In this document: positions 1-46,374 of the stretch, one piece after another
How positions within the stretch are numbered: the first letter of the stretch is position 1
Layout: the number at the start of each line of letters is the position of its first letter
Assembly (NCBI GenBank): GCA_001873435.1
Contig: MNZB01000004.1
Span: 239,538-303,537 of the forward strand
Direction of reading: 5' to 3'
DNA: 64,000 nucleotides
Source: Candidatus Pacebacteria bacterium CG2_30_36_39
GTDB taxonomy: Bacteria > Patescibacteriota > Microgenomatia > UBA1400 > PJMF01
Translations under genes and position numbers: made by a program
The notes under the pieces: model-generated
Seen by the model: only the letters and a program-made list of their open reading frames with translations
Told to the model about the DNA's origin: nothing
The model's database searches: none

Positions 1-1068
1 TTTAATAATTGGTTGAGTAACCAAGACTGGCCTATCTGCTTCTTGAGTTTGTACTAAATCCAAAACCTCTTCAGCTACAGCCATTGAAGTATTCTCAACT
101 GAAGCGGTTAAATTGGTGGCTTCATCAGTTGCTGTTGCTGCTCCAGTAGTTATAGCTGGAAGATCAACGAAAGCAGCAAGATCTGCTAATGACTGAGCGC
201 TTGCATCATCATCAGCACTGGTGACTAATTTGTCAGCCAATTGCTCTGGAGTTTGAGGTAAAACCGCTTCTTCAACCATAGCAGAAGCAGAAGCTTCTTG
301 AACAACAGGTACTTGACCCAATACTACCTCAGCAACAGGTTGCGAAGCGGAAACTAGACTTGTAAAACTAGAGACTTTATTAGGTTCAACTCCTTGCACC
401 ACGATATTTAACAAACTTTGATCAGTTAACTCTGCATAGCCACTGCCATCTTGCTTTCTAGCATTTGATAAAGCCAAAGCCCAACTACCAGATGATTTAA
501 TTAATGTAGACATTTCTGCAACCCCATCAGCTTTGACAAAAACTACACTACCTTCTGCAGGAGCTCCTGCCTCAGTAGAAACCGTACCATAAACAGTCTT
601 GTTGGTTGGTGGAGCACCACTTGGCGTTGAATATGTTTTAGTTGAAAAAGGAATACCGCTATTATCAAAACTCGAACCAGAAGCAGTACCTAAAACAAAC
701 TTATAACTAGTATTTGGAGTAAGACCTCTAACAGTGACATGATGTAAACGATAATTACCAATAGAACCAGAAAGTTGATCTCTATCGTCGCTAGACTGAG
801 TCTTCATTGAATCTTCGCTAGTACCATATTTAATAAAACCATTGGTACTTTCATCTGTATAGAAAACTACCGTAAAAGACTTATCAGTCAAATTGGTAAC
901 CTTAACATTTTTTGGGGTTGTTTGCGGTGTTGCTCTTGGAGCAAAAACTCCAGTGCCATCGCCAAACATCAATAATCCGGCCACAAGAGAAATAAGCAAA
1001 ACCCCAAGACCAAGTATGGTTGGGATTTGTTTCTTGGCTAATGGTGTTTTCTTTACTACAGGTTGCAT
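1..1068 (-). CDS. Secreted/membrane-anchored protein with an Fn3-like beta-sandwich domain. The 5' end is at ATG 1066-1068 and the 3' end runs off the window start (partial).
   Basis: The minus-strand frame is open from position 1 to ATG 1068 (MQPVVKKTPLAKKQIPTILGLGVLLISLVAGLLMF...). There is an N-terminal hydrophobic anchor and then an Fn3/PAP-N-like block '...FTVVFYTDESTNGFIKYGTSEDS...YRLHHVTVRGLTPNTSYKFVLGT'. It is absent from the ORF track because there is no stop inside the window. It is the last gene of the murJ-pilN-pilO string. Confidence 0.6.
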   Translation of the reverse strand, partial: MQPVVKKTPLAKKQIPTILGLGVLLISLVAGLLMFGDGTGVFAPRATPQTTPKNVKVTNLTDKSFTVVFYTDESTNGFIKYGTSEDSMKTQSSDDRDQLSGSIGNYRLHHVTVRGLTPNTSYKFVLGTASGSSFDNSGIPFSTKTYSTPSGAPPTNKTVYGTVSTEAGAPAEGSVVFVKADGVAEMSTLIKSSGSWALALSNARKQDGSGYAELTDQSLLNIVVQGVEPNKVSSFTSLVSASQPVAEVVLGQVPVVQEASASAMVEEAVLPQTPEQLADKLVTSADDDASAQSLADLAAFVDLPAITTGAATATDEATNLTASVENTSMAVAEEVLDLVQTQEADRPVLVTQPIIK

Positions 1069-1205
1069 ATAAAACAAAAGTGTTAAAACACTCCTGCTAA
1101 TACTCTAGTGAAATTTTAATAAAACTACAAGGCGAATAAAACACAAAGTTAAATAATACACATATCTGGCGAGCTTCAAAGTTTCTCAACATAAAAATCT
1201 ATTAA

Positions 1206-11358: not shown

Positions 11359-11467
11359 TAAAACGCTTTTTGTTAATTTTAGGTTATGTTCCCTAAAAGG
11401 TGAAGAGAAATTGTCATCTGCCAGTAAAAAATTGAGAATTCATTTTTAACGCATCTTTATATACTAA

Positions 11468-14378
<2,911 letters not shown>

Positions 14379-14584
14379 AATTAGCGAAATTTGCATTTTT
14401 TTATAAATTCTCGACGAATTTACTATTAGATGACATATCTCTTCACTTTTTAAAGAACAATTCTAAACAAGAAGCTTCCGCTCCTTGTTGTTCGCCCCGA
14501 GTAGTCAAGATTTCTCTCAAAAACCCATGAACGAATAACAAAAAGCCGATCTTAGTTATTCTTGTTTATGTTAATTTGCTTCTG

Positions 14585-14658
14585 TGGACCCTAAGGGGCT
14601 CGAACCCTTGGCCTCTACATTGCAAATGTAGCGCTCTAGCCAACTGAGCTAAGGGCCC
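14585..14658 (-). tRNA. tRNA-Ala (anticodon UGC), immediately upstream of the 23S rRNA.
   Basis: The reverse complement is GGGCCCTTAGCTCAGTTGGCTAGAGCGCTACATTTGCAATGTAGAGGCCAAGGGTTCGAGCCCCTTAGGGTCCA. It forms a cloverleaf, the anticodon loop is TTTGCAA, and the Ala-identity G3:U70 pair is present. Confidence 0.9.
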
Positions 14659-17166: not shown

Positions 17167-17778
17167 ATGACACCAATTAGCACTCACTACTTCTCTCTTT
17201 CAAAGAGAACATTTGATTTTTCTCTAGCTATTTTCCTTGCTATCTTCTTATCTCCATTACTATTATTAATTGCTATTACTATTTTAATAAGTTCTGGTAT
17301 GCCAATCATTTTTACTCAGAAAAGAACTGGAAAAGATGGTAAAACCTTTACCATTTACAAATTTAGAACAATGAAAAAAAATGCTTCACTACTCAAGCAT
17401 AAATATCTAGAATTCAATGAAGCACCTTCTCCAATGTTTAAAATTCACAATGACCCAAGATTTGTTGGCATTGGAAAATTATTATCTCAAAGCGGTTTTG
17501 ATGAACTCCCTCAATTAGTTAACATCATTAAAGGTGAAATGAGCTTTGTTGGACCAAGACCATTGCCTGTTCAAGAAGCCGCCTCCCTTAATCAAAACTG
17601 GAAATCTTTTAGAGAACAAGTAAAACCAGGTGTTTTTTCAGAATGGACTCTTTCAAGCAATAGACATTCAACTCTAAAAAAATGGCAAGAACTAGAAGAA
17701 AAAACTCTATCGTATAGTAATTTAAAAAATGATTTAGAAGTCATGATTAAAGTCATGCTCAAACAACACAATCCCTAA
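17167..17778 (+). CDS. Initiating polyprenyl-phosphate hexose-1-phosphate transferase (bacterial sugar transferase, PglC/WbaP C-terminal type).
   Basis: One TM helix followed by 'PIIFTQKRTGKDGKTFTIYKFRTM...FDELPQLVNIIKGEMSFVGPRPL'. Confidence 0.85.
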   Translation: MTPISTHYFSLSKRTFDFSLAIFLAIFLSPLLLLIAITILISSGMPIIFTQKRTGKDGKTFTIYKFRTMKKNASLLKHKYLEFNEAPSPMFKIHNDPRFVGIGKLLSQSGFDELPQLVNIIKGEMSFVGPRPLPVQEAASLNQNWKSFREQVKPGVFSEWTLSSNRHSTLKKWQELEEKTLSYSNLKNDLEVMIKVMLKQHNP

Positions 17779-17830
17779 ATAAATTTAATCCTAAAACTTA
17801 GGATTAGCAGATGATGCTATTATTAAAATA

Positions 17831-20422
17831 GTGTCAAATATCCTTAAGTTTTTAGCTGGTTCAGCATTATTAATAATTTATTTATTATTAATCTTCTTAT
17901 TAGGTGAATCATTTCTGCAATATGTTCTTTTTGGGATGGGGGCGATCATTTGCCTTTATTTATCATTTGCTCTGGGAAATTGGTCTTCATTAATTAAATA
18001 CCCCTTAATTCTGGCTGGCTGGATATTATTTGTTTTGAGCTTGGCAATAAGCACTATTTCTACTGTGAATCTACCGCTAACTTTGAGTTATTTAGCATTT
18101 TATGGATTAAGCTATTTAACATTTATTACGATTTTGGTTTTACCTAAAAAAATAAAAAGTATTTGGGTAATTTTCACAACATTACTAGCAATTTTTATAG
18201 TTACTCTAATTAGTATCTTTTTTCAGTTATTTCCAGAAATGGCCAAATCATTACCAACAATGAACTTGATTTATTCAACTTTTGGCCATAACCATTTAGC
18301 AGCCATACTATTACTAATTATTCCCATGAGCTGGTGGTTTGCCATCAATAAAAAACACGAGCTAAGTGAAGTTTTTCCAAATATTTTTTTTCAAATTGTT
18401 CCCTTTTTTTTCTCAATAGTTTTGCTTTTTAGCTTTGGAAGAATAGCTATTTTGTTGGGTTTATTTGAGTTTTTAATTATTAAATTTTTATTAAATAAAC
18501 AAAAAGTATCTCCAACAAAAATTATTAAAAATGAACTACGCCTATTACAAATCTTATTTTTCTCAATCTTAATTATTAAAATCATCTTCTCAGTAGTTGA
18601 AATATTTAATCCTGGCTATATATGTCCTATTCAAGAAAAAGAAAAGCAATTATGTAAATCTATTTCAAATGAAAGAAGACCGCTCTACTGGGATCAAGCC
18701 TGGAAAGTAATCAAGGAATACCCGCCAATTGGTTCTGGACCAGGTACTTTTAGTGTTTCTGGAGCTAAATACAGCCAAGCCCCTCTATATAGAACATCTT
18801 TTGCTCATAACGCTTTCCTAGAAAACTACAGCACTTTGGGAATTATCGGAGGTAGCATCTTCATATTTTTAATGTTTAACATGTTATTTAAAGTAAGTCG
18901 TGCAAAAGAAATAAAAATAAATTCAAAAGAAGAATTGATTAATGGCAGTAATAGTTGGCAATTTTTCAGTTTAATTTCTTTATGTGCAATTTATGTTGAT
19001 GTTCTATTTGATTTTGATTGGAATTTTTCAGGAATCTTCATTTTAACGCTCATCTTAATTGCAACCATGCTTCGAGAAACTACTATAAATAAAGATCTAA
19101 ATTTTCTTAACAAAAGAAAGAGTGAAAAAATAGCTAAAGCAACTAAAAACATATTTGTTTTTATTAGTTTTTGTTTAATCACCCTATCTGGAACATATTT
19201 GGTTGTTGAATTTAAAATCAAACAACAAAAAACCAATGAAGCATTTGAGTTTTTCCCCTACTTCCACTGGCATCGTAAAATTTTTGAAACAGAACTATCT
19301 TCAGAAAACTACCCCAAACTCTTAAGTATTTATAAAAATTATCCAGAACACTACATATTTTTAATCAGCAAAGAAATTGATCCAAACAAAACAGCTCTCC
19401 TAAAAAAAAGACTGGGAGAACTGAGTCCTTGGGACAAAATTAAGGAAAATAACATTGAATACTATTTAAATGAAAATCAATATGACTTGGCTCAACAAGA
19501 ACTAGAAACAATTCATGAACTTTATCAAAAAAGCTTAAAAACAAGCGATGACTGGATTTTTAGCTATAGCGATATAAAAAGACTATCTCAACAGACCCTT
19601 AGATTTGCAGACAAAATATGGCTTCAAAACCCCTTATTAGCCGCTGATTTTTACACTAAAGCTCAAAAAATAGATTCATGGACTTGGCAAGAAAATAGCT
19701 TGGGTATTTTAAATGATAAATTTGACCAATATTTTCAACAAAGATTAGAATTTATGAGAAATTTTCCAAATGAAAAATATGATTATTTAGGCACTAATCG
19801 TAACACTTATGCCAAAAAATATTTATTGGCTTTAAATGAATTTTTAAAATCACAAGAAAACCCTCAAAATATTCATAATGATCTAAACAATATTTTAAAT
19901 ATGGCTAACTGGCTTTCTGTTTATGCTTGGGCTGACCTAAATGAAATTTACCAATTAAAAATAACCCAAACCTTACAAACAAACAAAATAAATGAAGTTA
20001 GTAGTTTAATTTCAGAATGGAAAAAAACCTCAGAAACAATCCAAAAATACAACAAAGATCTTTCGTGGGATTATAAACTAAAAATTAACTTAGTTAAAAA
20101 ACTGCAAAAAAAAGCTACTGAATTATTAAACAATAATAAAGCTGAAAATCTTACAGATGAAATAAGAAGCCAAGTCATGGATTTGGTTTCTTTAATGAAC
20201 CAAGTTTTACCAGAAAATTATTGGGTCATAGTACAGCCAGGAAATCTATATACCTATTTTGGCCAAATTGAGACAGCAAAAAAGGCTTTTCAATATTGTT
20301 TAGACAACTATTATGATCCAGGAAAACATGTAGATTGTGAGAATGGATTATTAAATTTAAATCAAGAAATACCAAATAAGAACCGCTATTTTGAAGTATC
20401 TAAAACCATCCTCAGCCAATAA
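17831..20422 (+). CDS. Wzy_C-family membrane protein (O-antigen ligase / O-oligosaccharyltransferase-like) with a ~450-aa C-terminal alpha-helical soluble domain.
   Basis: About 10 N-terminal TM helices. The motif '...RTSFAHNAFLENYSTLGIIGG' is the Wzy_C signature. The long K/N/E-rich C-terminus is probably TPR-like. Confidence 0.7.
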   Translation: MSNILKFLAGSALLIIYLLLIFLLGESFLQYVLFGMGAIICLYLSFALGNWSSLIKYPLILAGWILFVLSLAISTISTVNLPLTLSYLAFYGLSYLTFITILVLPKKIKSIWVIFTTLLAIFIVTLISIFFQLFPEMAKSLPTMNLIYSTFGHNHLAAILLLIIPMSWWFAINKKHELSEVFPNIFFQIVPFFFSIVLLFSFGRIAILLGLFEFLIIKFLLNKQKVSPTKIIKNELRLLQILFFSILIIKIIFSVVEIFNPGYICPIQEKEKQLCKSISNERRPLYWDQAWKVIKEYPPIGSGPGTFSVSGAKYSQAPLYRTSFAHNAFLENYSTLGIIGGSIFIFLMFNMLFKVSRAKEIKINSKEELINGSNSWQFFSLISLCAIYVDVLFDFDWNFSGIFILTLILIATMLRETTINKDLNFLNKRKSEKIAKATKNIFVFISFCLITLSGTYLVVEFKIKQQKTNEAFEFFPYFHWHRKIFETELSSENYPKLLSIYKNYPEHYIFLISKEIDPNKTALLKKRLGELSPWDKIKENNIEYYLNENQYDLAQQELETIHELYQKSLKTSDDWIFSYSDIKRLSQQTLRFADKIWLQNPLLAADFYTKAQKIDSWTWQENSLGILNDKFDQYFQQRLEFMRNFPNEKYDYLGTNRNTYAKKYLLALNEFLKSQENPQNIHNDLNNILNMANWLSVYAWADLNEIYQLKITQTLQTNKINEVSSLISEWKKTSETIQKYNKDLSWDYKLKINLVKKLQKKATELLNNNKAENLTDEIRSQVMDLVSLMNQVLPENYWVIVQPGNLYTYFGQIETAKKAFQYCLDNYYDPGKHVDCENGLLNLNQEIPNKNRYFEVSKTILSQ

Positions 20423-20486
20423 TAAATCTTAAATAATAAAAAACTATGGCTAGTGGTTATTTTTCTATGATAAGATCGAGCCTATT

Positions 20487-21464
20487 ATGAATACTAAGAA
20501 ACGAGCAAGGGTTTTAGTTGCAGGCGGTGGTGGCTTTATTGGTGGTCACTTAATTAAATATCTTAAAAAACAAGGTTATGAAAAAATCAGAGCTGTAGAC
20601 ATCAAACCACTGTCTGAGTGGCAACAGCTAGATTCTAAAGTTGAAAACATTTCCCTAGATCTTAAAGATAAAAACAACTGTATCGAAGCAGTTAAAGGAA
20701 TTGATGAAGTTTATAACCTAGCAGCTGATATGGGTGGCATTGGTTTTATCGAAAATAATAAGGCCAGTTGTATGCTGAGCGTTTTAATAAACACTCACTT
20801 ATTATTAGCAGCCAAAAATAACAAAGTTAAACGTTTTTTCTTTGCTTCATCAGCTTGTGTTTATGCTGCTGACAAACAAACAGAAACTCAAAATAAGGGC
20901 TTAAAAGAAAGCGATGCTTATCCAGCCATGGCTGAAGATGGTTACGGTTGGGAAAAGTTATTCAGTGAAAGAATGTGTCGCCACTTTGCAGAAGATTTCG
21001 GCTTAAAAACAAGAGTAGCTAGATTTCATAATGTTTATGGCCCATTCGGTGATTACAACACCGGCCGTGAAAAAGCTCCTGCTGCTTTAACTAGAAAAAT
21101 CATTGCTGCTGAAAAAACAAAGAAAAAAGAAATTGAAATTTGGGGAGATGGTGAGCAAACTAGAAGCTTTATGTATATTGATGACTGTGTAAAAGGCATC
21201 GACCTAATTATGCACAGTAATATTAAGGAGCCAGTCAACTTGGGTAGTGAAGAAATGGTTTCCATTAATCAATTGGTAGAGATATTAGAAAAAATTGCCA
21301 AAATAACTGTCAAAAGAAAGTATTTGCTTAACGCACCAAAAGGAGTTAGAGGTAGGAGTAGTGATAATACTCTGCTTAGAAAATATCTGAGTTGGGAACC
21401 ATCTATTTCTCTCAAAAGAGGTATGAGCAAACTATATCAGTGGATCAAACAAGTAGAAAAGTAA
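20487..21464 (+). CDS. GDP-mannose 3,5-epimerase (GME; NAD-dependent epimerase/dehydratase family).
   Basis: Near-identical blocks to plant and bacterial GME: 'AGGGGFIGGHL', 'YNLAADMGGIGFIENN', 'KRFFFASSACVYAADKQTETQNKGLKESDAYPA...GYGWEKL', 'RFHNVYGPFGDYNTGREKAPAA', 'EIWGDGEQTRSF.YIDDCV', 'EPVNLGSEEMVSIN', 'KGVRGRSSDN'. Confidence 0.8.
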   Translation: MNTKKRARVLVAGGGGFIGGHLIKYLKKQGYEKIRAVDIKPLSEWQQLDSKVENISLDLKDKNNCIEAVKGIDEVYNLAADMGGIGFIENNKASCMLSVLINTHLLLAAKNNKVKRFFFASSACVYAADKQTETQNKGLKESDAYPAMAEDGYGWEKLFSERMCRHFAEDFGLKTRVARFHNVYGPFGDYNTGREKAPAALTRKIIAAEKTKKKEIEIWGDGEQTRSFMYIDDCVKGIDLIMHSNIKEPVNLGSEEMVSINQLVEILEKIAKITVKRKYLLNAPKGVRGRSSDNTLLRKYLSWEPSISLKRGMSKLYQWIKQVEK

Positions 21465-21517
21465 TCTTATTGACAGACCATAACGCATAGATTAGTTTAA
21501 CATAGAGAAATATCATT

Positions 21518-21805
21518 ATGATGCATTTTATTAATCAACTTAAAAACCAATTAATGGATTTTTTTCAAAGCAAAAAAACCCTAATGAAATATTTAAAAAA
21601 AATTAACTTTTATTTTAAAAAATTTCAAACAATAGTGAACTTTCTTATTTCCTTTATAAGCTTACTATTCACTTATATTGTTGGCATTGGAATTACTAGC
21701 TTAGTTGCAAAGATAGTGGGCAAAAAATTTCTTGGCAAAAAAGCCACTGATTCTCAATGGGTAGCGGTAGATTATTCAGATAAATTTAATCAGAAAATGT
21801 CCTAA
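21518..21805 (+). CDS. Small membrane protein (hypothetical).
   Basis: 95 aa with one TM helix (IVNFLISFISLLFTYIVGIGITSLVA). Its stop is 2 nt before the carbamoyltransferase start. Confidence 0.3.
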   Translation: MMHFINQLKNQLMDFFQSKKTLMKYLKKINFYFKKFQTIVNFLISFISLLFTYIVGIGITSLVAKIVGKKFLGKKATDSQWVAVDYSDKFNQKMS

Positions 21806-21807
21806 AA

Positions 21808-23538
21808 ATGAAAACACTAGGTATTTCAGCTTTTTACCATGATTCAGCAGTTTGTTTAATAATTGATGGAAAAATCATTGCGGCGGCTGCAGAAGAACGT
21901 TTTACTAGAATAAAACATGATAATAATTTTCCCCATCGAGCCATTAAATACTGCTTGGAAGAAGCAAACATATCTATTAATGATTTAGATGCTATTGCTT
22001 TCTACGAAAAGCCAATCTGGAAATTTGAAAGACTGCTCAGTCAGCATCTCGAGTACTTTCCCCTTAGCATTAAGGTCTTTTTAGAAAACACCGGTTCTTG
22101 GCTGAATCAAAAACTAAATGTAGAAAACATTGTAAAAAAAGAACTCAAATACAATGGCAAAATATTTTTCAGTCCTCATCACCTTTCGCATGCTGCCAGT
22201 GCCTATTATCTTTCAGATTTTGAAGATTCAGTAATTGTTACGGTTGATGGAGTTGGAGAATGGGCCACTACTACTGTTGGTAGAGCAACTAAAAACAAAA
22301 TTAAAATAGATAAAGAAATCAGATTTCCTCACTCTCTTGGTTTGCTTTATAGCACCTTAACTGGTTATTTAGGTTTCAAAGTTAATGATGCTGAATATAA
22401 AGTCATGGGCCTTGCTGCTTATGGTGACTACAAACCATTTTTAAAGAAATTCGACCAATTAATCAAAATGCATAAAGACGGAAGTTATTCCTTAAATATG
22501 GAATATTTTGATTATGGTTGGGCAGAACATATGCCATCAGCAAAAATGGCTAAATTATTTGGTTATCCTATTAGAAAACCAGAATCAAAAATAGAACGAC
22601 ATCACGAAAACATTGCTGCTGCCTTGCAATACAAAACAGAACAAGTAGTTTTTAATTTACTTAAAAAAGCTCACCAAGAATACAAATGCGATAATCTTTG
22701 CATGGCTGGCGGTGTAGCTTTAAACTCTGTCTTAAATGGCAAAATATTGACAAATACTCCATTTAAAAAAATCTATATTCCCCCGGCTCCCAGCGATGCT
22801 GGTGGAGCCATGGGAGCTGCTTTATATCTAGATCAAAACCCAGAATTAATTGGTTTAAAGAAAAACACCAAAACAACCCATTTGGCCTTAGCTAAAAACT
22901 TCACTCCATACTTGGGTCCAGCTTATAGCCAAGATAGAATTCTAAAGGCTATTAAAGATTCCAAGCTAAAATATAAGTTATATAAAAGTGAAAAAGATTT
23001 ATTAGACTTTATTAGTGATTTAATCATTGATAAAAAAGTAATTGGCTGGTATCAAGGCAGGATGGAATGGGGGCCAAGAGCTTTGGGTAGTCGTAGTATT
23101 CTTGCTGCTGCCACCAGTAAAGACATGAAAGATATTTTGAATTTAAAAGTTAAAAAAAGAGAATTATTTAGACCTTTTGCCCCAGTTATTTTGGAAAAAT
23201 ATGCCCACGAATTCTTTGAAGCAGATAAGCCATTGCCTCCACTAGCCAAATACATGTTGCTTGTATATCAATTTACCAAAAAGGGAGCCAAAGACATTCC
23301 TTCTGTGGTTCATGTCAACGGTAGTGGAAGATTACAAAGCATCAATTGCAAAGAAAATCCTCTTTATTATGATCTTATTGATACTTATAGAAAAAAGACT
23401 GGAGTACCAGTTATCATCAATACTTCTTTTAATGTTCGCGGAGAACCAATTATCGATTCTCCAGAAAGCGCTATTAACTGCTTTTTAACAACAGAAATAG
23501 ATTGTTTAGTGATGGATCGCTATATAGTATTAAAGTAG
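21808..23538 (+). CDS. Carbamoyltransferase (NodU/CmcH family).
   Basis: 'MKTLGISAFYHDSAVCLI.DGKIIAAAAEERFTRIKHD..FP' N-terminal Kae1-like ASKHA fold plus a C-terminal YrdC-like domain, 576 aa. Confidence 0.85.
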   Translation: MKTLGISAFYHDSAVCLIIDGKIIAAAAEERFTRIKHDNNFPHRAIKYCLEEANISINDLDAIAFYEKPIWKFERLLSQHLEYFPLSIKVFLENTGSWLNQKLNVENIVKKELKYNGKIFFSPHHLSHAASAYYLSDFEDSVIVTVDGVGEWATTTVGRATKNKIKIDKEIRFPHSLGLLYSTLTGYLGFKVNDAEYKVMGLAAYGDYKPFLKKFDQLIKMHKDGSYSLNMEYFDYGWAEHMPSAKMAKLFGYPIRKPESKIERHHENIAAALQYKTEQVVFNLLKKAHQEYKCDNLCMAGGVALNSVLNGKILTNTPFKKIYIPPAPSDAGGAMGAALYLDQNPELIGLKKNTKTTHLALAKNFTPYLGPAYSQDRILKAIKDSKLKYKLYKSEKDLLDFISDLIIDKKVIGWYQGRMEWGPRALGSRSILAAATSKDMKDILNLKVKKRELFRPFAPVILEKYAHEFFEADKPLPPLAKYMLLVYQFTKKGAKDIPSVVHVNGSGRLQSINCKENPLYYDLIDTYRKKTGVPVIINTSFNVRGEPIIDSPESAINCFLTTEIDCLVMDRYIVLK

Positions 23539-23550
23539 AATAAAAATAAT

Positions 23551-23694
23551 ATGTTTAAAGAATTAATTAAATATTTATGGAAAAATAAATCTTGGTGGAT
23601 TATCCCACCAGTAATTATTTTAATTATCTTTGGCGCATTAGTGGTTTTTTCTCAAACATCTCCACTTAGTCCATTTATCTACGTCTTATTTTAA
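23551..23694 (+). CDS. 47-aa membrane protein of the small family that typically follows carbamoyltransferases (DUF5989-like).
   Basis: ATG at 23551, 13 nt after the carbamoyltransferase stop. The sequence is MFKELIKYLWKNKSWWIIPPVIILIIFGALVVFSQTSPLSPFIYVLF. It is too short for the ORF track. Confidence 0.55.
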   Translation: MFKELIKYLWKNKSWWIIPPVIILIIFGALVVFSQTSPLSPFIYVLF

Positions 23695-24917
23695 AGTTTT
23701 TCAATAGCTTTAATCACCATTGGAGTTAGTTTTTTGGCAACTATTTCATAACCTTTATCTGACGTATGAATGTGATCAATATAAATATCTTCTGAAAATT
23801 CATTATAAAAATCTGTGCCATCAATAATTGTTTTATCCAAAAATAATTTGGATTTAAGCAAATAGTCATAAGCAGAAGAAAAATACTTCTCTGCCCCAGG
23901 AAAAACCCCCACAAATCTTTCCTTAATTCTTATTTCTTCAGTTGAAAAAGATTTATTACCCCAAAAAATAGTTGGTTGAAAAACAAATAATACAGGAGTT
24001 TTTGTTTTACTCGCTATTGCGTTAATATAGTCAACACTTTCTTCATATTTTTTTGCTGAATCAATTGCAACATTCCCTTGTTCTAAAATATTCTCAGCTT
24101 TATTAAGATTTGATTTTTGCAAATGATATCTAAAAAAACCAAGTAATTCACTCTTATTTAAACGATTTTTAACTTCTTCTTCTATTAATGACCAAGCAGC
24201 ACCCAATTTTTTCTTGGTCAAAGCATTCTCATTAATACCAGGCAAATTTGACCCTACTTTATAAATAAAACCAGCATAAAGATCATTAAAACCACCATAG
24301 TGAATAACTAAATCTGGTTGGTAGGCACTAATTTCTTTCCACATCAATAATTCTTGAGTAGAAACATAGCCTGGCTGGCCTAGATTTAGCACTTCTATTT
24401 TATTGGCTACTAAATTTATTTTTTTCTCTGCCAACTTGTTATTTAGCTCTTTCTCTAGATAGCCAATAATAGTTTTATCATCAGCCGTTGCTCCCTGACC
24501 CCAAACTGAAGAACCGCCCAATATGATGATTCTAAAAGTTCCAGCTTGTTTTTCTCCCCAGTCATTACCCCTATAGCCTAATGAGTTGGTAGAAACGACT
24601 CCGTTGTCTTGATTTGGATCAGATGCCCACAACAAAAATGGCTTATATGAATATTTAATATTCTCATACTGTTTAGTAACAAAATCCTGTTCTTCCAAAC
24701 TAGAAAAAGTAGAAAAATATAAACGATCAACATTCTTCACTCGATGAATAAATCTTAGTGTTAACTCACCAGCAATTAAAAATAAAAAAACAATCAAACA
24801 AGAAATTAAAACTAGAAACAATTTATTTATTTTAAAAGCAAACTTATTATCAGCTTCTAATACTATTTTTTCTCTAGAATTAACAGATTCTTTTTTCTCA
24901 GACCTAACACTAAACAT
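23691..24917 (-). CDS. Membrane-anchored SGNH/GDSL-family hydrolase (possible glycan O-acetyl esterase/transferase).
   Basis: N-terminal TM helix. Block I 'IIILGGSSVWGQGA' contains the catalytic Ser. Block III is 'VIHYGGFNDL'. The late 'DHIHTSDKGYE' supplies the Asp/His. Confidence 0.55.
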   Translation of the reverse strand: MFSVRSEKKESVNSREKIVLEADNKFAFKINKLFLVLISCLIVFLFLIAGELTLRFIHRVKNVDRLYFSTFSSLEEQDFVTKQYENIKYSYKPFLLWASDPNQDNGVVSTNSLGYRGNDWGEKQAGTFRIIILGGSSVWGQGATADDKTIIGYLEKELNNKLAEKKINLVANKIEVLNLGQPGYVSTQELLMWKEISAYQPDLVIHYGGFNDLYAGFIYKVGSNLPGINENALTKKKLGAAWSLIEEEVKNRLNKSELLGFFRYHLQKSNLNKAENILEQGNVAIDSAKKYEESVDYINAIASKTKTPVLFVFQPTIFWGNKSFSTEEIRIKERFVGVFPGAEKYFSSAYDYLLKSKLFLDKTIIDGTDFYNEFSEDIYIDHIHTSDKGYEIVAKKLTPMVIKAIEKL

Positions 24918-24992
24918 AGGCCAGATTGTACTATAATAATTAAACGATTAACAAACAGCTAATAAATATTATTTCAAGAAAAATTTAAACCA

Positions 24993-26120
24993 ATGAAGAT
25001 AATAACAAGAATAAAACATTTTTTTAGAAATCTTCTTTTTGGAATATTTGCCTCTATCTTTACATCATTGCTTATTTTAGTTGCAATCAATCTTTTTCTT
25101 GAAAAAATATACCTTCGTAATAATTTACCCCAGCATGATTGGACGGTTTTATTTACTACTTATGATCCTAGGTATGTTTTTTGGCAAAACTGCCTTGATG
25201 AATTCTGTCCAGAAAAATTTGGACAAAATTATCCACTGGATAAAATAGGAATTTATACCAATAAATTTAATTCTGAAAAAAATAAAGAAGCCAATTCTTG
25301 TTTAAAAATTTTGTTCCTTGGAGATTCTTTTTCTTCTTCTCCATTCTCAGATCATAGTTATTCATATTATTTTGCAGATTCACTGGCAAAAAACTCTAGT
25401 TTTTGTGTAGAAACAATTAGCATTGCCTCTGGAGGAGCTGGAAATAGTCAAGAATTAGCAAGACTTGAAGATGTAATAGAACAAGCCAAACCGAATGCAG
25501 TAATATGGCAATTCTACTGGAATGATTTTTTCGACAACATTAGATTTTCTCTTTTTGAAATTAACAATGAAGAACTAATTAGAAAAAAAGCTTGGGATAG
25601 CTCAGCCTTTTGGTCTGGATACATTAATCAAAAAATTCATCTTCTTGAAGATTCAACCTTGGGAAAATTCATCTCTACTAAAATGTTTTATAACGATCTT
25701 TTTCATAGCCAACCAGCAGATGATCGAGATTTTGCAAAAGTTATTGAATATAACCAAAAATTTATTCCTTTGGCAATTAAAAGAGTAGAAAAATTGGGAG
25801 AAAAAAATAATTTCAAACTATTTACCACCCTATCTCCCATGGAATGTCAATTTAATACTAATTCAACCTGTGAAAAATGGGCTATTAATTTCCAAGATCA
25901 ATTGAGAAAAATACTTTCAGAAAACAATAATTATTTATCAATGGAAAAAGAATTTATAATAAACGATCAAGAAAAAACCATTGAAGAATCCCAAAACAAA
26001 GAAATTCTTTTTGCAGAAAATGATAAACTCACAACTAAGGGAATCAGACACTTATCAGATGATGGAGAAAAATATTTTGGTGGAATTTTATTGCAAAATT
26101 TCTTAAACAAAATTAGTTAA
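24993..26120 (+). CDS. Second SGNH-like hydrolase, transcribed divergently.
   Basis: N-terminal TM helix, then 'ILFLGDSFSSS' (GDS motif) and 'AVIWQFYWNDF'. Confidence 0.45.
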   Translation: MKIITRIKHFFRNLLFGIFASIFTSLLILVAINLFLEKIYLRNNLPQHDWTVLFTTYDPRYVFWQNCLDEFCPEKFGQNYPLDKIGIYTNKFNSEKNKEANSCLKILFLGDSFSSSPFSDHSYSYYFADSLAKNSSFCVETISIASGGAGNSQELARLEDVIEQAKPNAVIWQFYWNDFFDNIRFSLFEINNEELIRKKAWDSSAFWSGYINQKIHLLEDSTLGKFISTKMFYNDLFHSQPADDRDFAKVIEYNQKFIPLAIKRVEKLGEKNNFKLFTTLSPMECQFNTNSTCEKWAINFQDQLRKILSENNNYLSMEKEFIINDQEKTIEESQNKEILFAENDKLTTKGIRHLSDDGEKYFGGILLQNFLNKIS

Positions 26121-28839: not shown

Positions 28840-29729
28840 TAATTTTCAACAACTGGTTCTACAAATGAAATTTTACCAATGACAGAAATATTATCAAAAA
28901 TTAAATATAATTTACTATCAACCAATAGTGGAGATTCTTTACGATAATAGTAATTGCCATTAATTTCTTCTCCAAGAATTTCTAAAGTTAAAGTAGTTTT
29001 AGTTCTTTCTGGATCTACTACAGAATAATAATTACCAGCTTCTACAAAACTTCTTTTACCTGGTTGAGTTTTAATTGAAACAATTTTCACTAATTCCGAT
29101 CCTTTGGCATCAGCAATGTTCATTCCTTCTTTTAATGCCCTAAGAACATGGTTTTCAATTCCTTCGATTAAAGCATTGCTGTTATTTTGAAAGTCTGGAG
29201 ATACTCCTTGAGCGTCGAGTTCCAAAGTAACTAAAAACTTTTTAAATATCTTTTCTTTAGTACCCAAGTCAACTATTTCTCCAGCTAAAAGCAAGTCTCC
29301 AACTTTAAAAGATCGGATGTCATGAATTAACAATGGACTACCATTAAAAACATACTGGCCAGTAACATTATTTTTTAGGGCCCTAAGACGAACAGTTACA
29401 TAAACATCATGATAAATAGATGGACCTGGATACTGATATACATCAACTATTTCAATTAATGATCTTCCCAATCCATCAACTTGTTTTTTCCCAGTTGTCA
29501 CCTGCTCAACATACCAAGATCTTGGTTTATTTTGTCCAAATGAATATTCTGGCCCCTCATAACTAAGTAAGCGAACTGTTAAATCAAGATATTCAACTTT
29601 ACGACTTAAAAAGAAATAAGCAGAACCCATTAAAAAAACCACTAAAAACACCCCCACGAAATCTAGGGCACTGGCATTTCTAAGCTTTTTTAAAAATATA
29701 GATATTAGTTTATGAAGTTGTTTTTTCAT
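28839..29729 (-). CDS. Membrane-anchored hypothetical protein in the glycan locus.
   Basis: 296 aa with one N-terminal TM helix. It is start/stop-coupled to its neighbours. Confidence 0.4.
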   Translation of the reverse strand: MKKQLHKLISIFLKKLRNASALDFVGVFLVVFLMGSAYFFLSRKVEYLDLTVRLLSYEGPEYSFGQNKPRSWYVEQVTTGKKQVDGLGRSLIEIVDVYQYPGPSIYHDVYVTVRLRALKNNVTGQYVFNGSPLLIHDIRSFKVGDLLLAGEIVDLGTKEKIFKKFLVTLELDAQGVSPDFQNNSNALIEGIENHVLRALKEGMNIADAKGSELVKIVSIKTQPGKRSFVEAGNYYSVVDPERTKTTLTLEILGEEINGNYYYRKESPLLVDSKLYLIFDNISVIGKISFVEPVVEN

Positions 29730-31212
29730 AATGTAGAACTAATAGAATAGCCAAAATATTAAAGCTAAAAAGATTTATAAATGGATGAAACAACATCATA
29801 ATAAATCCCGCAGCGATACTTGAGTATATCATGGCTAAAGCAAGCGGACTAAACAAAATTTTCCTAACTTTTTTCAATAATAAACCAAAGAATACCAAAC
29901 AAAAAACTCCAGCTACCAAACCTCTTTCAACTAAAAACAAAATAAAACCATTATGAATTTCCTCTGGAAAATATTTCATTATCCCCTCTGGAAAGAGCTC
30001 AAAAGAAACTGGAATAAACATTCCAGAACCAAAACCCAAAAATGGAGATTTTCCTAAAACACCAAAAGCTTCTTGTGTTTGAGAAATTCTAGTCGTTACC
30101 CCGCCAGTAGGAGAAAAAGAAGAAAAACTATTGAATAAACGATAAGACATTTTGAATATTAATACTGAACTAGCAAATAAAAATATTAATTTTATCCAAG
30201 GGTTTATTTTTTTAACTTCAACATTAATTTTTTTAATAAAGCTAAAAATATTTTTATCTCTAAAATAATAAAAAGAATAAAATCCGCAACTAACAATAAA
30301 AGCCAAGAAAGCTGATCTGCTTAATGAAATAAATGTTACAAAAACAAGAATTCCAATGATTAATAAATAAATAATTTTATTAGCTTCTTTAGAAAATACA
30401 TTCTTTAAATAATTAACAAAAACCAGAGCTCCCAAAGCCATCATGAGCTGTTCGTTGGCCAAACTATTAGCATGTGGGTGCCAACCGAATGGCCTAAATC
30501 CTCCCCCCTGTTCATCTGAGCCAAGCCCAAAAACTGGAATTATCTCAGCTTTTTCTATCATTAAACCTAATGCTGAATTTTTAATCAATTGAGCAAAGAC
30601 AAGAAAATTTTCAAAAGACAAAGTAACTAATAAAATTAAAATTAAAGTAGCTAAAACCTTGTTTCTTTGCACTTTTAAATTAGCAGTAGCTATTAGTAAA
30701 TACATAAACCAAATAAGAATTAAACTTTCTCTAAGAGAAAAAATCGTGCTTAAAAAAGGAAAAGGAGCTATCCAAAATGATGAAAAAATAAAAATAAACG
30801 GCAAAATTAACAATATTTTTTCATAAGTTAATAACTTTATTCTCGATTTAAAATAGTAAAATGGTAGTAATAATCCAGCAGCAAATAAAATTACCAAATG
30901 AGGTGAAAGAATGAACAACAATTGCCTTCCCTCCCAATATTGAATTGAACCTATGTCAGCAGCAGACATAACAGGAAAAGCATAAATTTGCCCAACTGTT
31001 AATGAAAGAAAAATTGGAACACTATAGATAACTGCCCTGGGAAAAGAGTAATAAAAAGCCAAAAAAATAAAGTAAAAAAAACTAACTACAAAATATATTT
31101 TTACTGATGGAATTAAAAATACCATGGCACAAAATAAAAAAGTAGCAATCACTGCCATCTGGTCAGTGGGTTTGATGAGGCTTGCTAGAAATTGTTTAAT
31201 TTTTTGCAACAT
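29710..31212 (-). CDS. Wzy-like polymerase / O-antigen-ligase-family polytopic membrane protein.
   Basis: 500 aa with more than 10 TM helices. Large loop with 'SRSAFLAFIVSCGFYSF'. Confidence 0.55.
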   Translation of the reverse strand: MLQKIKQFLASLIKPTDQMAVIATFLFCAMVFLIPSVKIYFVVSFFYFIFLAFYYSFPRAVIYSVPIFLSLTVGQIYAFPVMSAADIGSIQYWEGRQLLFILSPHLVILFAAGLLLPFYYFKSRIKLLTYEKILLILPFIFIFSSFWIAPFPFLSTIFSLRESLILIWFMYLLIATANLKVQRNKVLATLILILLVTLSFENFLVFAQLIKNSALGLMIEKAEIIPVFGLGSDEQGGGFRPFGWHPHANSLANEQLMMALGALVFVNYLKNVFSKEANKIIYLLIIGILVFVTFISLSRSAFLAFIVSCGFYSFYYFRDKNIFSFIKKINVEVKKINPWIKLIFLFASSVLIFKMSYRLFNSFSSFSPTGGVTTRISQTQEAFGVLGKSPFLGFGSGMFIPVSFELFPEGIMKYFPEEIHNGFILFLVERGLVAGVFCLVFFGLLLKKVRKILFSPLALAMIYSSIAAGFIMMLFHPFINLFSFNILAILLVLHYEKTTS

Positions 31213-43469: not shown

Positions 43470-44159
43470 ATGATAAATATCATTGATTCAGCCAATATCA
43501 CCAATAATAGCCAAGAAGGCTCTAAAGACAATCCTCCTCAAATTAAGCTCCCTGATGCCACTGGTGTTGCTTCAGCTCAATTTCAAAAAAAGTTTTCTGA
43601 AAAACCACAGAGAAAAGGCTTATCCAAATATTTAATTGCCGGAATTCTCTTGTTACTTTTGGCCATCGGAGGCGGAGCAAGTCTTTATTTAATGAGTATT
43701 AATCAAGACCTTAGACAACAAGCTGATCAAGGAGATTACACTAATCCAACTGATCCACCAGAAGAGCCTACAACTGCCCCGACCACTGCCCCAACTACTG
43801 AACCTACTGGCGAACCAACTACCGAACCTACAACTGAACCCACTGGTGAACCAACTACCGAACCTACGGGCGAACCAACGGATGGGCCAACTGGTGAACC
43901 TACCACTGAACCCACTGGTGAACCTACAACTGAACCAACCACAGATCCTGGAAACGGTGGTGGTGGAAGTAGCAGTTCTTCAAGTTCATCATCAAGTAGT
44001 ACGGCTGTTGTAAATATCAATAATGGAAGCACCACAATAAGAGTTCAACCAACTCTGCCTCCTCAATTGCCACAAACTGGACCAGAAGATTGGCTAAAAT
44101 ATTTACAAGTAGGCTTGGGAGCCTTAGGAGTTGGAGCCTTATTCCTACTCTTCTTATAA
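43470..44159 (+). CDS. Surface protein with an N-terminal TM + INQDLRQQA motif, a TEPTGEP tandem repeat, a poly-Ser run and a C-terminal LPQTG + hydrophobic tail.
   Basis: '...LYLMSINQDLRQQAD', (PTTEPTGE)n, 'GGGGSSSSSSSSSSSS', 'LPQTGPEDWLKYLQVGLGALGVGALFLLFL*'. Confidence 0.65.
   Translation: MINIIDSANITNNSQEGSKDNPPQIKLPDATGVASAQFQKKFSEKPQRKGLSKYLIAGILLLLLAIGGGASLYLMSINQDLRQQADQGDYTNPTDPPEEPTTAPTTAPTTEPTGEPTTEPTTEPTGEPTTEPTGEPTDGPTGEPTTEPTGEPTTEPTTDPGNGGGGSSSSSSSSSSSTAVVNINNGSTTIRVQPTLPPQLPQTGPEDWLKYLQVGLGALGVGALFLLFL
43765..43940 (+). repeat. In-frame imperfect tandem repeat (~24-nt unit) encoding the (P-T-T/G-E-P-T) linker.
   Basis: 'gaacctactggcgaaccaactaccgaacctacaactgaacccactggtgaaccaactaccgaacctacgggcgaacc...' recurs. 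Confidence 0.7.
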
Positions 44160-45387: not shown

Positions 45388-46374
45388 ATGACTGACTGGA
45401 ATAAAAAACCACTAGCTGAAATGCCAGAAACTGCAAAGAAAGAATCTTCTAGCGTGCCTCAGTTTTCTCAATCACCTATAAAAAAGAGTGATCCAAAGAA
45501 AACAATTTTTGCTATTTTAGGCCTAGTCTCATTCTTTATTCTCGGTGTTGCTGGTGTATTAATCTCTCAAAAACAATATTTAGACAAAAATGTTACTGCT
45601 CCCAATGCCCCAGGATCTCAACCAGCTGCTTATATAAACAAAGCTAGTTGTCATCTAACCTTTACAGTCGGAACACCAACAACAGTAGTCAAAACTGCTT
45701 GTGGATTTAGTCCTTGTGAAACTGATAACGACTGTATTGATGGTTTAAGCTGTGTTACTAGCTCTGGCGACTCTATCGGAGAAGGTGCAAAATACTGTTC
45801 TCAACCTGAATTTGAAGATGCCTGTATTCTTAATCCAGGAGTAGATGCTTGTTGTACCGAGCCAACTCCAGTGCCAGGAGAATGTGCTGCCGAATGTGTA
45901 AGCGATACTGACTGTGACACTGGTTTAACTTGTGTTGGACCGGAAGATGGGGCTAAGTTCTGTTCAGAGCCAGAATTTGAAGATGCCTGTATCAACAACC
46001 CAAGCTCTGAATCTTGTTGTACCGAGCCAACTCCAACCATAACTGGCAATCCAACTGCAACCCCGAATCCAACTACAACTCCTAACCCAACTAATCCTCC
46101 AGGCGGTGGAAGCTCATCTAGCTCAAGTTCTTCATCTAGTTCATCAGTTGTTGTAAATGTTGATAACAGCACTACTACAAACACCACTACTCAAAACACT
46201 ACAACAAAACCTGGAACTACCACAAAAACCACTACTCCAAAAACCACCACCAAAGGTGCTCAACCAGAATATCCAGAAGAACTTCCAAAAACTGGACCAG
46301 AAGAATGGCTACAATATCTCCAAGTTGGCCTAGGCGCACTAGGAGTTGGAGCCTTATTACTGCTCTTCTTATAA
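45388..46374 (+). CDS. Cys-rich surface protein with an internal ~50-aa duplicated Cys module, a poly-Ser run and a C-terminal LPKTG + hydrophobic tail.
   Basis: N-terminal TM helix. The duplicated module is '...GAKYCSQPEFEDACILNPGVDACCTEPTP' / 'GAKFCSEPEFEDACINNPSSESCCTEPTP'. 'GGGSSSSSSSSSSSS'. C-terminus 'LPKTGPEEWLQYLQVGLGALGVGALLLLFL*'. Confidence 0.65.
   Translation: MTDWNKKPLAEMPETAKKESSSVPQFSQSPIKKSDPKKTIFAILGLVSFFILGVAGVLISQKQYLDKNVTAPNAPGSQPAAYINKASCHLTFTVGTPTTVVKTACGFSPCETDNDCIDGLSCVTSSGDSIGEGAKYCSQPEFEDACILNPGVDACCTEPTPVPGECAAECVSDTDCDTGLTCVGPEDGAKFCSEPEFEDACINNPSSESCCTEPTPTITGNPTATPNPTTTPNPTNPPGGGSSSSSSSSSSSSVVVNVDNSTTTNTTTQNTTTKPGTTTKTTTPKTTTKGAQPEYPEELPKTGPEEWLQYLQVGLGALGVGALLLLFL

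Follow-up and report, generated by a model that had tools for sequence, protein, structure and literature searches.

The WaaL/PglL/Wzy superfamily (Wzy_C, GT-C-like) includes WaaL, the protein O-oligosaccharyltransferases (O-OTases) PglL and PglS of Proteobacteria (Neisseria, Acinetobacter), and some of the Wzy O-antigen and capsule polymerases. A catalytic Arg/Arg/His set has been described for E. coli WaaL (R215, R288, H338) and for PglL (R224, R298, H349) (PMC3643930). In the AlphaFold model of PglS, a periplasmic C-terminal domain comes after 13 TM helices (PMC12800693), and the TM segments of PglL and TfpO likewise precede a large periplasmic C-terminal domain (PMC12800693; bioRxiv 10.1101/2020.04.19.049825). 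Among monoderms, WsfB of Paenibacillus alvei and WsaB of Geobacillus stearothermophilus are predicted O-OTases of S-layer proteins; WsfB carries a C-terminal TPR motif, as is reported for PglL, and a separate TPR protein, WsaA, is encoded alongside WsaB (PMC2943079). A periplasmic TPR domain is also present in TfpW, the group IV pilin arabinosyl/oligosaccharyl transferase of P. aeruginosa, and the TPRs of this enzyme, like those of OGT and SPY, are believed to choose the protein substrates (bioRxiv 10.1101/2020.04.19.049825). Our literature search on WsfB and on a PglL structure returned only a review from 2010 and a paper on PglS engineering, and WsfB and WsaB are compared here by description.

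The window (the 64-kb stretch of DNA analysed here, from an ultra-small patescibacterium of the Pacebacteria) contains an ORF of 863 aa, listed exactly as the first-pass annotation had described it (Table 1), and an identical sequence is present in a public protein collection (P0001). At about 30% GC, an ORF of 863 codons cannot have arisen by chance, and the GTG start is supported by 27 homologues that line up from residue 1. From its sequence, the protein is a predicted extracytoplasmic lipid-linked-glycan transferase of the WaaL/PglL/Wzy superfamily. Our tentative proposal, made with slightly less than even confidence, assigns it the role of terminal protein O-oligosaccharyltransferase in a conserved surface-glycan locus of Patescibacteria. 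The locus encodes a second, 500-aa Wzy_C protein, which the first-pass annotation had missed. NCBIfam gave no match (0) for either protein, and both are therefore without a curated subfamily name.

Table 1. Features of the 863-aa protein gene and of the genes discussed with it; positions are those of the window.
Feature	Position	Strand	Basis or remark
Gene of the 863-aa Wzy_C-family membrane glycan transferase with C-terminal TPR-like ectodomain (predicted)	17831..20422	+	GTG start; stop included
Membrane domain, aa 1-464	17831..19222	+	13 TM helices, N terminus inside
Outer-loop motif F-G-H-N-H-L-A-A, aa 151-158, before TM6	18281..18304	+	Conservation
Pfam Wzy_C (PF04932), aa 192-345	18404..18865	+	E=3.6e-12, 46.7 bits
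S-F-G-R motif, R204 at outer end of TM8	18431..18448	+	R204 in 51/52 members
Large extracytoplasmic catalytic loop, aa 260-327	18608..18811	+	Residue conservation
Short outer loop V-L-F-D-F-D-W-N-F, aa 391-399, TM11-TM12	19001..19027	+	D394 in 49/52 members
TM13, aa 425-464, extra helix carrying the C-terminal domain outward	19103..19222	+	AF2 model
All-helical TPR-like ectodomain, aa 465-863, about 20 helices	19223..20419	+	AF2 model, Foldseek, profiles
Family-specific motif F-P-Y-F-H-W-H-R-K, aa 475-483, just outside TM13	19253..19279	+	Conservation
Canonical TPR unit, aa ~586-617	19586..19681	+	Consensus TPR proteins match repeatedly (profile A2, positions 126-154)
C823...H833..C836 motif	20291..20350	+	Sole two Cys of the ectodomain
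Upstream 203-aa monotopic phosphoglycosyl transferase (PGT; Bac_transf)	17167..17778	+	Pfam E=9e-48; NCBIfam; 52-nt gap
Downstream SDR sugar-nucleotide epimerase/dehydratase	20487..21464	+	Pfam, NCBIfam; 64-nt gap
Second Wzy_C paralogue, 500 aa, no C-terminal domain	29710..31212	-	Pfam Wzy_C E=7.6e-13
Homologue of ~520-aa TM-anchored FN3-like surface protein, A/S/T-rich linkers, cut by window start	1..1075	-	Candidate acceptor
Surface protein, PT(E) repeats, 11-Ser run, LPQTG sorting signal	43470..44159	+	Candidate acceptor, conjectural
Cys-rich surface protein, 12-Ser run, T-rich tail, LPKTG sorting signal	45388..46374	+	Candidate acceptor, conjectural

The Wzy_C assignment made in the first pass stands: the profile match lies above the Pfam gathering score (31.7 bits), the domain is matched in 52/52 scanned family members, and the fold is polytopic and of the WaaL type. 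In the AF2 model (pLDDT 88.3, pTM 0.78), for which WaaL is the best structural match, the TM helices span residues 2-24, 30-48, 58-76, 81-103, 110-133, 153-172 and 184-199 (TM1-7) and 204-223, 230-259, 328-356, 376-393, 400-416 and 425-464 (TM8-13), with a K/R-rich inner loop before the last. The Arg/Arg/His set of WaaL and of PglL/PglS (PMC3643930) is found on the outer face as R204, R283 and H326. The latter two lie in the large catalytic loop, which contains the pair C265/C275, R283-x-x-Y286-W287, G301-x-G303-x-G305 and H326-N327, and thus shares the R...GxGxG...HN arrangement of WaaL from E. coli and Cupriavidus metallidurans (7TPG/7TPJ). R283, Y286, G301 and H326 are invariant in both the 52-sequence and the 90-sequence sets. 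In an hhalign comparison of the family with K-12 WaaL, which aligned the His region only and with low probability, H326 falls on H338, and in a profile comparison the R and HN of C. metallidurans WaaL align with R283 and H326. R204 is proposed as the counterpart of WaaL R215 and PglL R224 from its position rather than from an alignment, and D394, again by position only, may correspond to the acidic residues E404 of PglL and E379 of PglS (PMC12800693). H153 and H155 of the motif before TM6 are kept in at least 90% of the family. By eye, G-W-H-P-H in the 500-aa paralogue resembles this motif.

This pattern of conservation bears on whether the protein is an enzyme at all. A degenerate, non-catalytic Wzy_C relic that serves as a membrane scaffold only would be compatible with the modest Pfam score of 46.7 bits, although nothing specific points to it. 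We consider it highly improbable, as the catalytic R, R and H and the motifs around them are invariant or nearly so in 52-90 homologues whose column identity averages 19-23%, and synteny with the PGT gene is conserved as well.

Which reaction is catalysed is less readily read from the membrane domain. The Wzy_C domain is common to polymerases and ligases (PMC3643930), and a Pfam match therefore cannot separate the two. With the Wzy polymerases the protein shares a polytopic fold and outer-loop Arg/His chemistry on Und-PP-glycans. Most of the characterized Wzy_C-type proteins of monoderms are polymerases. It is thus conceivable, though in our view unlikely, that the 863-aa protein is a Wzy-type polymerase that joins polyprenyl-PP-linked repeat units, with the external TPR-like domain as an internal module that sets chain length or engages a partner, and that the product is then attached elsewhere by another enzyme (for example the small Wzy_C paralogue or an LCP protein). 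We know of no characterized Wzy polymerase that combines a 13th helix with a large external TPR domain. Against a polymerase, several O-OTases do have the layout of a 13th helix and an external domain (PMC12800693; PMC2943079), and O-OTases in the broad sense share with the 863-aa protein a multi-TM Wzy_C core and an outer C-terminal domain.

A C-terminal extension of about 450 aa, rich in K, N and E and probably TPR-like, had been noted in the first-pass annotation. The extension is real but shorter, at about 400 aa (residues 465-863), with 12.5% L, 10.2% N, 9.7% K and 7.6% E. Its TPR-like character is borne out by the all-helical AF2 model, by the canonical unit and by matches to Pfam TPR models in 9/52 family members; the top Foldseek matches of the C-terminal half include the TPR domains of OGT and SPY. 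In the motif just outside TM13, P476, Y477 and F478 are invariant (alignment A1), with P476 in 50/52 members. C823 and C836 are kept wherever their columns are present (36-38/52, the remainder being gaps) and probably form a disulfide. Every topology test points to an extracytoplasmic rather than cytoplasmic TPR-like domain, the localization that the first-pass annotation had proposed to check. These comprise the count of 13 TM helices in the model, the positive-inside rule (K+R per homologue 11.2 in the predicted inner short loops vs 0.63 in the outer; n=52), and the conserved pairs C265/C275 and C823/C836, both in predicted outer parts.

A profile of this domain finds 442 cluster representatives, and in nearly all of them it starts at about aa 440-480 of a protein of 650-1000 aa. 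The domain is nearly always fused behind a Wzy_C membrane domain and is specific to the family. The first-pass annotation had called such a tail unusual for both WaaL and PglL; for O-OTases this does not hold, as WsfB, reportedly PglL, and TfpW illustrate. The fusion of a glycosyltransferase to an acceptor-side TPR domain is shared with TfpW, OGT and SPY, but this is a likeness of design and not of descent: TfpW is an ArnT/Emb-like GT-C enzyme with a DDX motif instead of Wzy_C, and OGT and SPY are soluble GT-B enzymes. The domain is also far larger than that of PglS (about 400 aa vs about 110 aa), and WaaL, with 403-419 aa, has no C-terminal ectodomain. TPR domains act as scaffolds in polysaccharide export systems too, so the tail alone does not imply a protein acceptor.

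The family comprises at least 165 clusters at 50% identity, all of them from Patescibacteria in the collection searched, and the relatives of the 863-aa protein are Patescibacteria without exception; WsfB and WsaB, which act on Tyr, Thr or Ser of S-layer proteins, differ in this and in the family-specific C-terminal domain. As a single-sequence PDB search with the membrane domain returned only noise, profiles were needed for the comparison with known structures. The family profile matches the PDB chain 9rmk_A (deposited as 'Oligosaccharyltransferase') with E 1e-4 and WaaL with E 9e-4, both marginal, which brings it no closer to 9rmk_A than to WaaL; similarity to WaaL is likewise marginal across the family profiles (E about 1e-3 to 3e-4). 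With the profile of the membrane domain WaaL is the only PDB match, and no similarity was detected between the C-terminal domain and chain 9rmk_A. The markers of PglL and PglS are absent from the protein: PglL_A (PF15864) has no match at E<=10 in the 863-aa protein and none in the 52 family members at E<=0.01 (0/52), and Wzy_C_2 (PF11846) has no match in the 863-aa protein and a weak one in 1/52 members (E=0.0057). In contrast to these two enzymes, the host here is a monoderm.

The closeness to WaaL and the absence of PglL markers would also suit a ligase that places the completed glycan on something other than a protein in the monoderm envelope (for example a membrane glycolipid, another wall polysaccharide or peptidoglycan), a functional WaaL analogue whose TPR domain would dock on wall-synthesis partners. 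Lipid A-core itself, the acceptor of WaaL, is not expected: Patescibacteria are not known to have LPS, LPXTG proteins of the sortase type are encoded in the window, and its scanned ORFs of at least 120 aa include no LPS or core genes, which agrees with the first-pass judgement that a WaaL function is unlikely. The window encodes no LCP-family ligase, so that another enzyme may do that job, and MurJ adjoins the locus in several genomes. However, the LCP search covered 64 kb, and an LCP enzyme may lie elsewhere in the genome. We know of no Wzy_C enzyme that ligates to peptidoglycan or to a glycolipid in a monoderm, and the lack of such a precedent counts against this reading. Moreover, where glycosyltransferases carry TPR tails, the best-documented cases, among them WsfB, TfpW and OGT, have protein acceptors (PMC2943079; bioRxiv 10.1101/2020.04.19.049825). 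We therefore regard a non-protein acceptor as improbable, if a serious alternative.

The gene neighbourhood resembles that of the monoderm O-OTases. Like WsfB and WsaB, the 863-aa protein is encoded in a surface-glycan locus with a Bac_transf-type initiating enzyme, and the ABC-2 (Wzm/Wzt) exporter and methyltransferase activity of the G. stearothermophilus locus have parallels here, where the genes include WecG, GT1 and GT2 transferases, carbamoyl-, methyl- and SGNH-type enzymes and an ABC-2 exporter. A promoter/terminator scan found no terminator-like site on the + strand from 17167 to 22533, and the sequence hints weakly that the + strand genes of this interval may be co-transcribed. The PGT gene directly adjoins the big Wzy_C gene in 13/22 related loci, down to 26% identity, and the two are still adjacent where the set of glycosyltransferases changes between genomes (L001 vs the window). 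This adjacency is easier to reconcile with an end-transferase that tolerates different glycans than with a polymerase specific for one repeat unit. A polymerase, which would work with Wzx and a Wzz/PCP co-polymerase, is also not favoured by the lack of a recognizable Wzx flippase (Polysacc_synt) in the 64-kb window, which has the ABC-2 exporter instead. The window likewise has no match to Wzz, and the partner of the small paralogue is not Wzz-like; a regulator built into a polymerase, in the form of the TPR-like domain, would fill this gap.

A further argument against a polymerase is the presence of a Wzy_C protein of conventional length in the same locus. BLASTP detects no similarity between the 863-aa protein and this 500-aa paralogue, which together with its partner (28839-29729) is conserved in L001, L002, L004, L010 and other contigs; at least five genomes have such a separate Wzy_C protein. 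From its sequence, the 500-aa paralogue is a candidate for the repeat-unit polymerase of the locus, which would leave the 863-aa protein as the end-transferase. The polymerase role of the small protein is itself conjectural, since its single-pass neighbour is beta-rich and not Wzz-like. Two large periplasmic loops, considered as a hallmark of Wzy, do not distinguish the paralogues: TM6 of the 500-aa protein is weakly hydrophobic and, once it is recognized, the loop layout is that of the 863-aa protein.

High divergence is typical of Wzy polymerases, and the 863-aa protein is the fastest-diverging gene of an otherwise conserved locus, with 34% identity to its counterpart in L005 vs 70-80% for the glycosyltransferases, which favours a polymerase. 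Relative rates do not separate the roles of the big and the small Wzy_C proteins, as the signal is not consistent: compared with L001 the 863-aa protein is better conserved than the 500-aa paralogue, and compared with L005 and the P0016 contig it is less so.

If the 863-aa protein is an O-OTase, candidate acceptors should be sought among the surface proteins. The Ser-rich surface proteins that the first-pass annotation had placed nearby are indeed poly-Ser or PT-rich LPXTG proteins, but they lie 23-26 kb downstream. Of the pilus genes to which it had pointed, PilN/PilO are present at 1607-2819, 15 kb upstream, but no canonical prepilin motif or pilin gene was found in the 64-kb window, and glycosylation of pilins is for that reason without support here. 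An S-layer gene was not identified in the window either. Overall, the candidate acceptors of this window are 15-26 kb from the 863-aa gene. A cognate acceptor is encoded close by for TfpO, TfpM and PglS, but not for PglL. In related loci (L003, L006, L007, L008, L009 and L010) a full-length homologue of the FN3-like surface protein lies directly beside the PGT and big Wzy_C genes, and the P0016 contig has a 530-aa gene in the same position. The S/T-rich protein beside the big Wzy_C gene is cell-wall-anchored in at least one locus, and some have sortase-type sorting signals. As the acceptors of PglL and PglS are low-complexity and S/A/P-rich, a similar preference would fit the S/T/P-rich proteins of the window.

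The fold, the conserved catalytic motifs, the outward topology, the coherence of the family and the gene neighbourhood are what the analysis shows, and they are compatible with the following pathway for the proposed O-OTase, in which we infer the type of donor, what each residue does, the sequence of steps and, most of all, which acceptor is used. The adjacent small PGT (203 aa) would prime the lipid carrier, so that glycan synthesis begins on polyprenyl phosphate on the inner side of the membrane; the WecG, GT1 and GT2 transferases would extend it, and the carbamoyl-, methyl- and SGNH-type enzymes would decorate it. The ABC-2 transporter or a MurJ-type flippase may then move the glycan outward, where the small Wzy_C paralogue possibly polymerizes it. 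The 863-aa enzyme would bind the polyprenyl-PP-linked glycan, the WaaL-like donor to be expected, via R204 and R283, and H326 in the outer loop would serve its en bloc transfer to Ser or Thr of S/T-rich surface proteins. The TPR-like ectodomain of ~400 aa after the 13th helix may recruit or position the acceptor. The absence of PglL_A and Wzy_C_2, the equally marginal similarity to 9rmk_A and to WaaL, the lack of an NCBIfam match, the distance of 15-26 kb to the acceptor candidates, the lack of a pilin gene and the high divergence all argue against an O-OTase.

More broadly, and more doubtfully, Patescibacteria (at least Pacebacteria and their relatives) may have a general en bloc protein O-glycosylation. 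Its OTase would then be of a previously undescribed class, in which a Wzy_C core and a 13th helix are followed by a lineage-specific TPR-like ectodomain of ~200-550 aa (FPYFHWH, C...H..C) that selects S/T-rich acceptors, including sortase-anchored ones.

Taken by itself, the 863-aa protein is not radically new; it is a plausible protein-glycosylating enzyme. Should it be a polymerase or a wall ligase, it would be an ordinary component with an unusual appendage. Our literature search found no paper on O-antigen-ligase-like proteins in Patescibacteria and, to our knowledge, almost nothing is known of how these bacteria build and decorate their surface. The conserved pair of a PGT and a Wzy_C-TPR end-transferase, near surface proteins and glycan-decorating enzymes, offers a concrete, clonable entry point, and E. 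coli glycoengineering strains permit assays of the gene that need no culture of its host. If the protein is an O-OTase, glycoengineering would gain a new class of enzyme whose acceptor-recognition module is of another kind, and the known range of en bloc protein O-glycosylation would come to include the candidate phyla radiation. Patescibacteria are abundant, mostly uncultured and thought to live attached to other cells, and their O-glycosylation would, if true, shape the surface used for this attachment.

The big Wzy_C gene is an unbroken open reading frame of 863 codons with a GTG start, in a region of about 29-33% GC where stop codons are common, and is therefore not a chance reading frame. 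The start codon is supported by 27 homologues (637-993 aa) that can be aligned with the protein from residue 1, and an identical 863-aa protein (P0001) is present in the public collection. The Pfam Wzy_C domain is matched at aa 192-345 (E=3.6e-12, over the curated cut-off), confirming the Wzy_C-domain protein described in the first-pass annotation. The C-terminal extension described there is also present, but is about 400 aa long (465-863) instead of about 450; it is abundant in L, N, K and E.

An AlphaFold2 model built from the 27-sequence alignment is confident (mean pLDDT 88.3, pTM 0.78) and shows 13 transmembrane helices, a 68-residue loop (aa 260-327) after TM9 and, past TM13, about 20 helices that make up an all-helical domain. 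Because the count of TM helices is odd, the C-terminal domain lies on the same side of the membrane as the catalytic loop. Several lines of evidence place that side outside: the catalytic loop of Wzy_C proteins is periplasmic in every characterized relative (PMC3643930, PMC12645811), the mean K+R content of short loops in 52 homologues is 11.2 for those predicted inside and 0.63 for those predicted outside, and two conserved Cys pairs lie in predicted outer parts. C265/C275 is kept in 46-47 of 52 members, whereas C823/C836, the sole Cys residues of the ectodomain, occurs in all sequences having those columns. An outward-facing TPR-like domain is thus well supported, and the cytoplasmic location that would have spoken against the original proposal is not what was found.

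Two alignments, one of 52 and one of 90 family members, have a mean column identity of 19-23%; R283, Y286, G301, H326 and G337 are invariant in them, and R204, H153, H155, C275, K276, D394 and P476 are kept in at least 90%. H338 of E. coli WaaL aligns to H326, and in C. metallidurans WaaL the equivalent Arg and His-Asn align to R283 and H326. The triads described in the literature are R215/R288/H338 for WaaL and R224/R298/H349 for PglL (PMC3643930); R204 corresponds to the first Arg by position only. From these WaaL-aligned residues, together with the position of R204, the predicted substrate is very likely a polyprenyl-pyrophosphate-linked glycan on the outer side of the membrane. Three motifs are specific to the family: FGHNH in an outer loop before TM6, DFDW in the outer loop linking TM11 and TM12, and FPYFHWH at the membrane boundary directly past TM13. 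By position, DFDW is a possible counterpart of PglL E404 and PglS E379 (PMC12800693). The Wzy_C/WaaL-fold superfamily features that we tested were found in the protein, and its assignment as a WaaL-fold lipid-linked-glycan transferase is well supported; that it is a non-catalytic relic is very improbable.

A profile of the C-terminal domain only, searched against 1.84 billion cluster representatives, matched 442 proteins at E<=1e-3; at the stricter E<=1e-10 there were 165. Nearly every match has a length of 650-1000 aa and a domain that begins at residue ~440-480, so that the ectodomain, which ranges from about 210 to 555 aa, is essentially confined to the Wzy_C fusion. Among the 52 family members scanned, Wzy_C was found in all, PglL_A in none, and Wzy_C_2 as one weak match. 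When a single genome from each GTDB species was scanned, relatives were present at 19 loci, and the informatively titled hosts are all Paceibacterota, Pacebacteria, 'Patescibacteria group' or Gottesmanbacteria. A coherent family, seen in these searches in Patescibacteria alone, is well supported, and its ectodomain is lineage-specific. Our literature search returned no paper on this O-antigen-ligase-like family in Patescibacteria.

The surrounding glycan locus spans about 26 kb and encodes an ABC-2 exporter pair, methyltransferases, and WecG/TagA, GT1 and GT2 glycosyltransferases. Within the window, no gene was detected for Wzx, Wzz, an LCP protein, a sortase or LPS. The carbamoyltransferase, GDSL/SGNH, decarboxylase and radical SAM genes suggest an unusually decorated glycan. 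The small Wzy_C paralogue has the same sequence as an NCBI protein from 'Candidatus Pacebacteria bacterium CG10_big_fil_rev_8_21...'. A 429-aa protein of the window has no Pfam or NCBIfam match and a homologue in the related locus L012; an N-terminal loop, HYHSDEYF, recalls GT-C (PMT/ArnT-like) glycosyltransferases, which use polyprenyl-P-sugars.

Features of the window, in order of position
Feature	Position	Strand	Remarks
Homologue of the L003 surface protein	1-~1075	-	A/S/T-rich linkers; cut by window start
PilN, PilO, MurJ	1607-4563
ORF	6850-7674	-	overlaps next ORF by about 200 nt
bPH_2-domain ORF	7478-8461	+	TTG start
Secreted protein	8729-10435	+	N-terminal TM helix
23S and 5S rRNA genes, with tRNA	11241-14382; 14585-14658	-	tRNA upstream
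PGT (Bac_transf)	52 nt upstream of big Wzy_C gene	+	203 aa
Big Wzy_C protein	17831-20422	+	863 aa
SDR epimerase	64 nt downstream of big Wzy_C gene
NodU/CmcH-type carbamoyltransferase, two membrane-anchored GDSL/SGNH proteins, PLP-dependent Orn/DAP/Arg-type decarboxylase, B12-binding radical SAM enzyme	21808-26120; 32793-34019; 40200-41813
Small Wzy_C paralogue	29710-31212	-	500 aa
429-aa protein	34867-36156	+	about 7-9 TM helices
LPXTG protein	43470-44159	+	P/T/E repeats, Ser runs (11-12), LPQTG or LPKTG end; N-terminal TM helix
Secreted protein	44296-45384	+	N-terminal TM helix
LPXTG protein	45388-46374	+	P/T/E repeats, Ser runs (11-12), LPQTG or LPKTG end
Second tRNA	46450-46522	+
VirD4/TraG/HerA-like coupling ATPase	52655-54991	-	778 aa
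DNA ligase	61808-63595	-	595 aa; ATP-dependent, not NAD-dependent type

Elsewhere in the window, no 16S gene adjoins the 23S and 5S genes, and the rRNA operon is therefore unlinked. For the two overlapping ORFs, which lie on opposite strands, the start of the bPH_2-domain ORF is probably set too far upstream.

Of the 22 related loci compared, 13 have the PGT immediately next to the big Wzy_C gene, down to 26% identity, and genes for WecG, carbamoyltransferase, SDR and GDSL proteins recur nearby. Genetic coupling to a priming PGT is thus well supported. The small Wzy_C gene recurs together with a single-pass partner (L001/L002/L004, L010, and the L005 and P0016 contigs). A ~520-aa TM-anchored surface protein directly adjoins the PGT and big Wzy_C pair in L003, L006, L007, L008, L009 and L010, and on the P0016 contig a 530-aa gene is found at the equivalent position. 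The L003 protein (L003:12813-14369) has an FN3-like (Pur_ac_phosph_N) match, faint CarboxypepD_reg/Big_13 matches, S/T-rich linkers and a C-terminal LPVSG followed by a hydrophobic stretch.

The window copy of this FN3-like protein adjoins PilO, PilN and MurJ after rearrangement; no canonical prepilin motif occurs in the whole window. Both LPXTG proteins look like sortase-anchored surface proteins and end, after LPQTG/LPKTG, in the identical tail PE(D/E)WL(K/Q)YLQVGLGALGVGAL. The first of them and the two secreted proteins, all three with no Pfam match, carry INQD[L/I]RQQA(D/S)xGxY after the TM helix, possibly a signal or processing site specific to this lineage.

As to function, we tentatively favor a protein O-oligosaccharyltransferase (O-OTase). 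PglS is described as having 13 helices and, after them, an external C-terminal domain, with PglL and TfpO similar (PMC12800693; bioRxiv 10.1101/2020.04.19.049825). WsfB and PglL are both reported to end in a TPR tail, and TfpW has one by convergence (PMC2943079; bioRxiv 10.1101/2020.04.19.049825). This shared layout argues for an O-OTase, and such a tail is, contrary to the first-pass annotation, not atypical of PglL-type enzymes. A polymerase with a built-in ectodomain is possible but on balance unlikely: polymerase activity can come from the separate Wzy_C paralogue of conventional type, which again favors the O-OTase. However, the partner of this paralogue is not Wzz-like, and polysaccharide machinery is also scaffolded by TPR domains, both of which count against an O-OTase.

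The PGT and big Wzy_C genes stay coupled while the glycosyltransferase set differs between genomes, and this persistence favors the O-OTase, as do the S/T-rich surface proteins encoded alongside in several genomes, at least one with a sortase-type signal. Ligation onto a non-protein envelope acceptor seems rather improbable. Against the O-OTase, PDB chain 9rmk_A ('Oligosaccharyltransferase' as deposited) is no closer than WaaL, and the protein diverges fast. In the well-conserved synteny of the L005 locus, identity to the window is 84% for S1, 78% for SDR, 76% for carbamoyltransferase, 70% for GT1 and 80% for GT2, but 34% for the big Wzy_C protein (36% membrane half, 33% ectodomain), the fastest-evolving gene of the locus.

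Compared with known systems, the protein is no WaaL in the functional sense, since the window offers no lipid A-core context and no LPS genes, in agreement with the first-pass annotation. It lacks both PglL_A and Wzy_C_2 and so also lies outside the PglL/PglS class that these markers define, a further point against an O-OTase. Closest in design, as judged from their descriptions, are WsfB and WsaB, the S-layer O-OTases of monoderms. While the protein itself would not surprise a specialist, its gene offers a clonable route to test en bloc surface-protein glycosylation in candidate-phyla-radiation bacteria.
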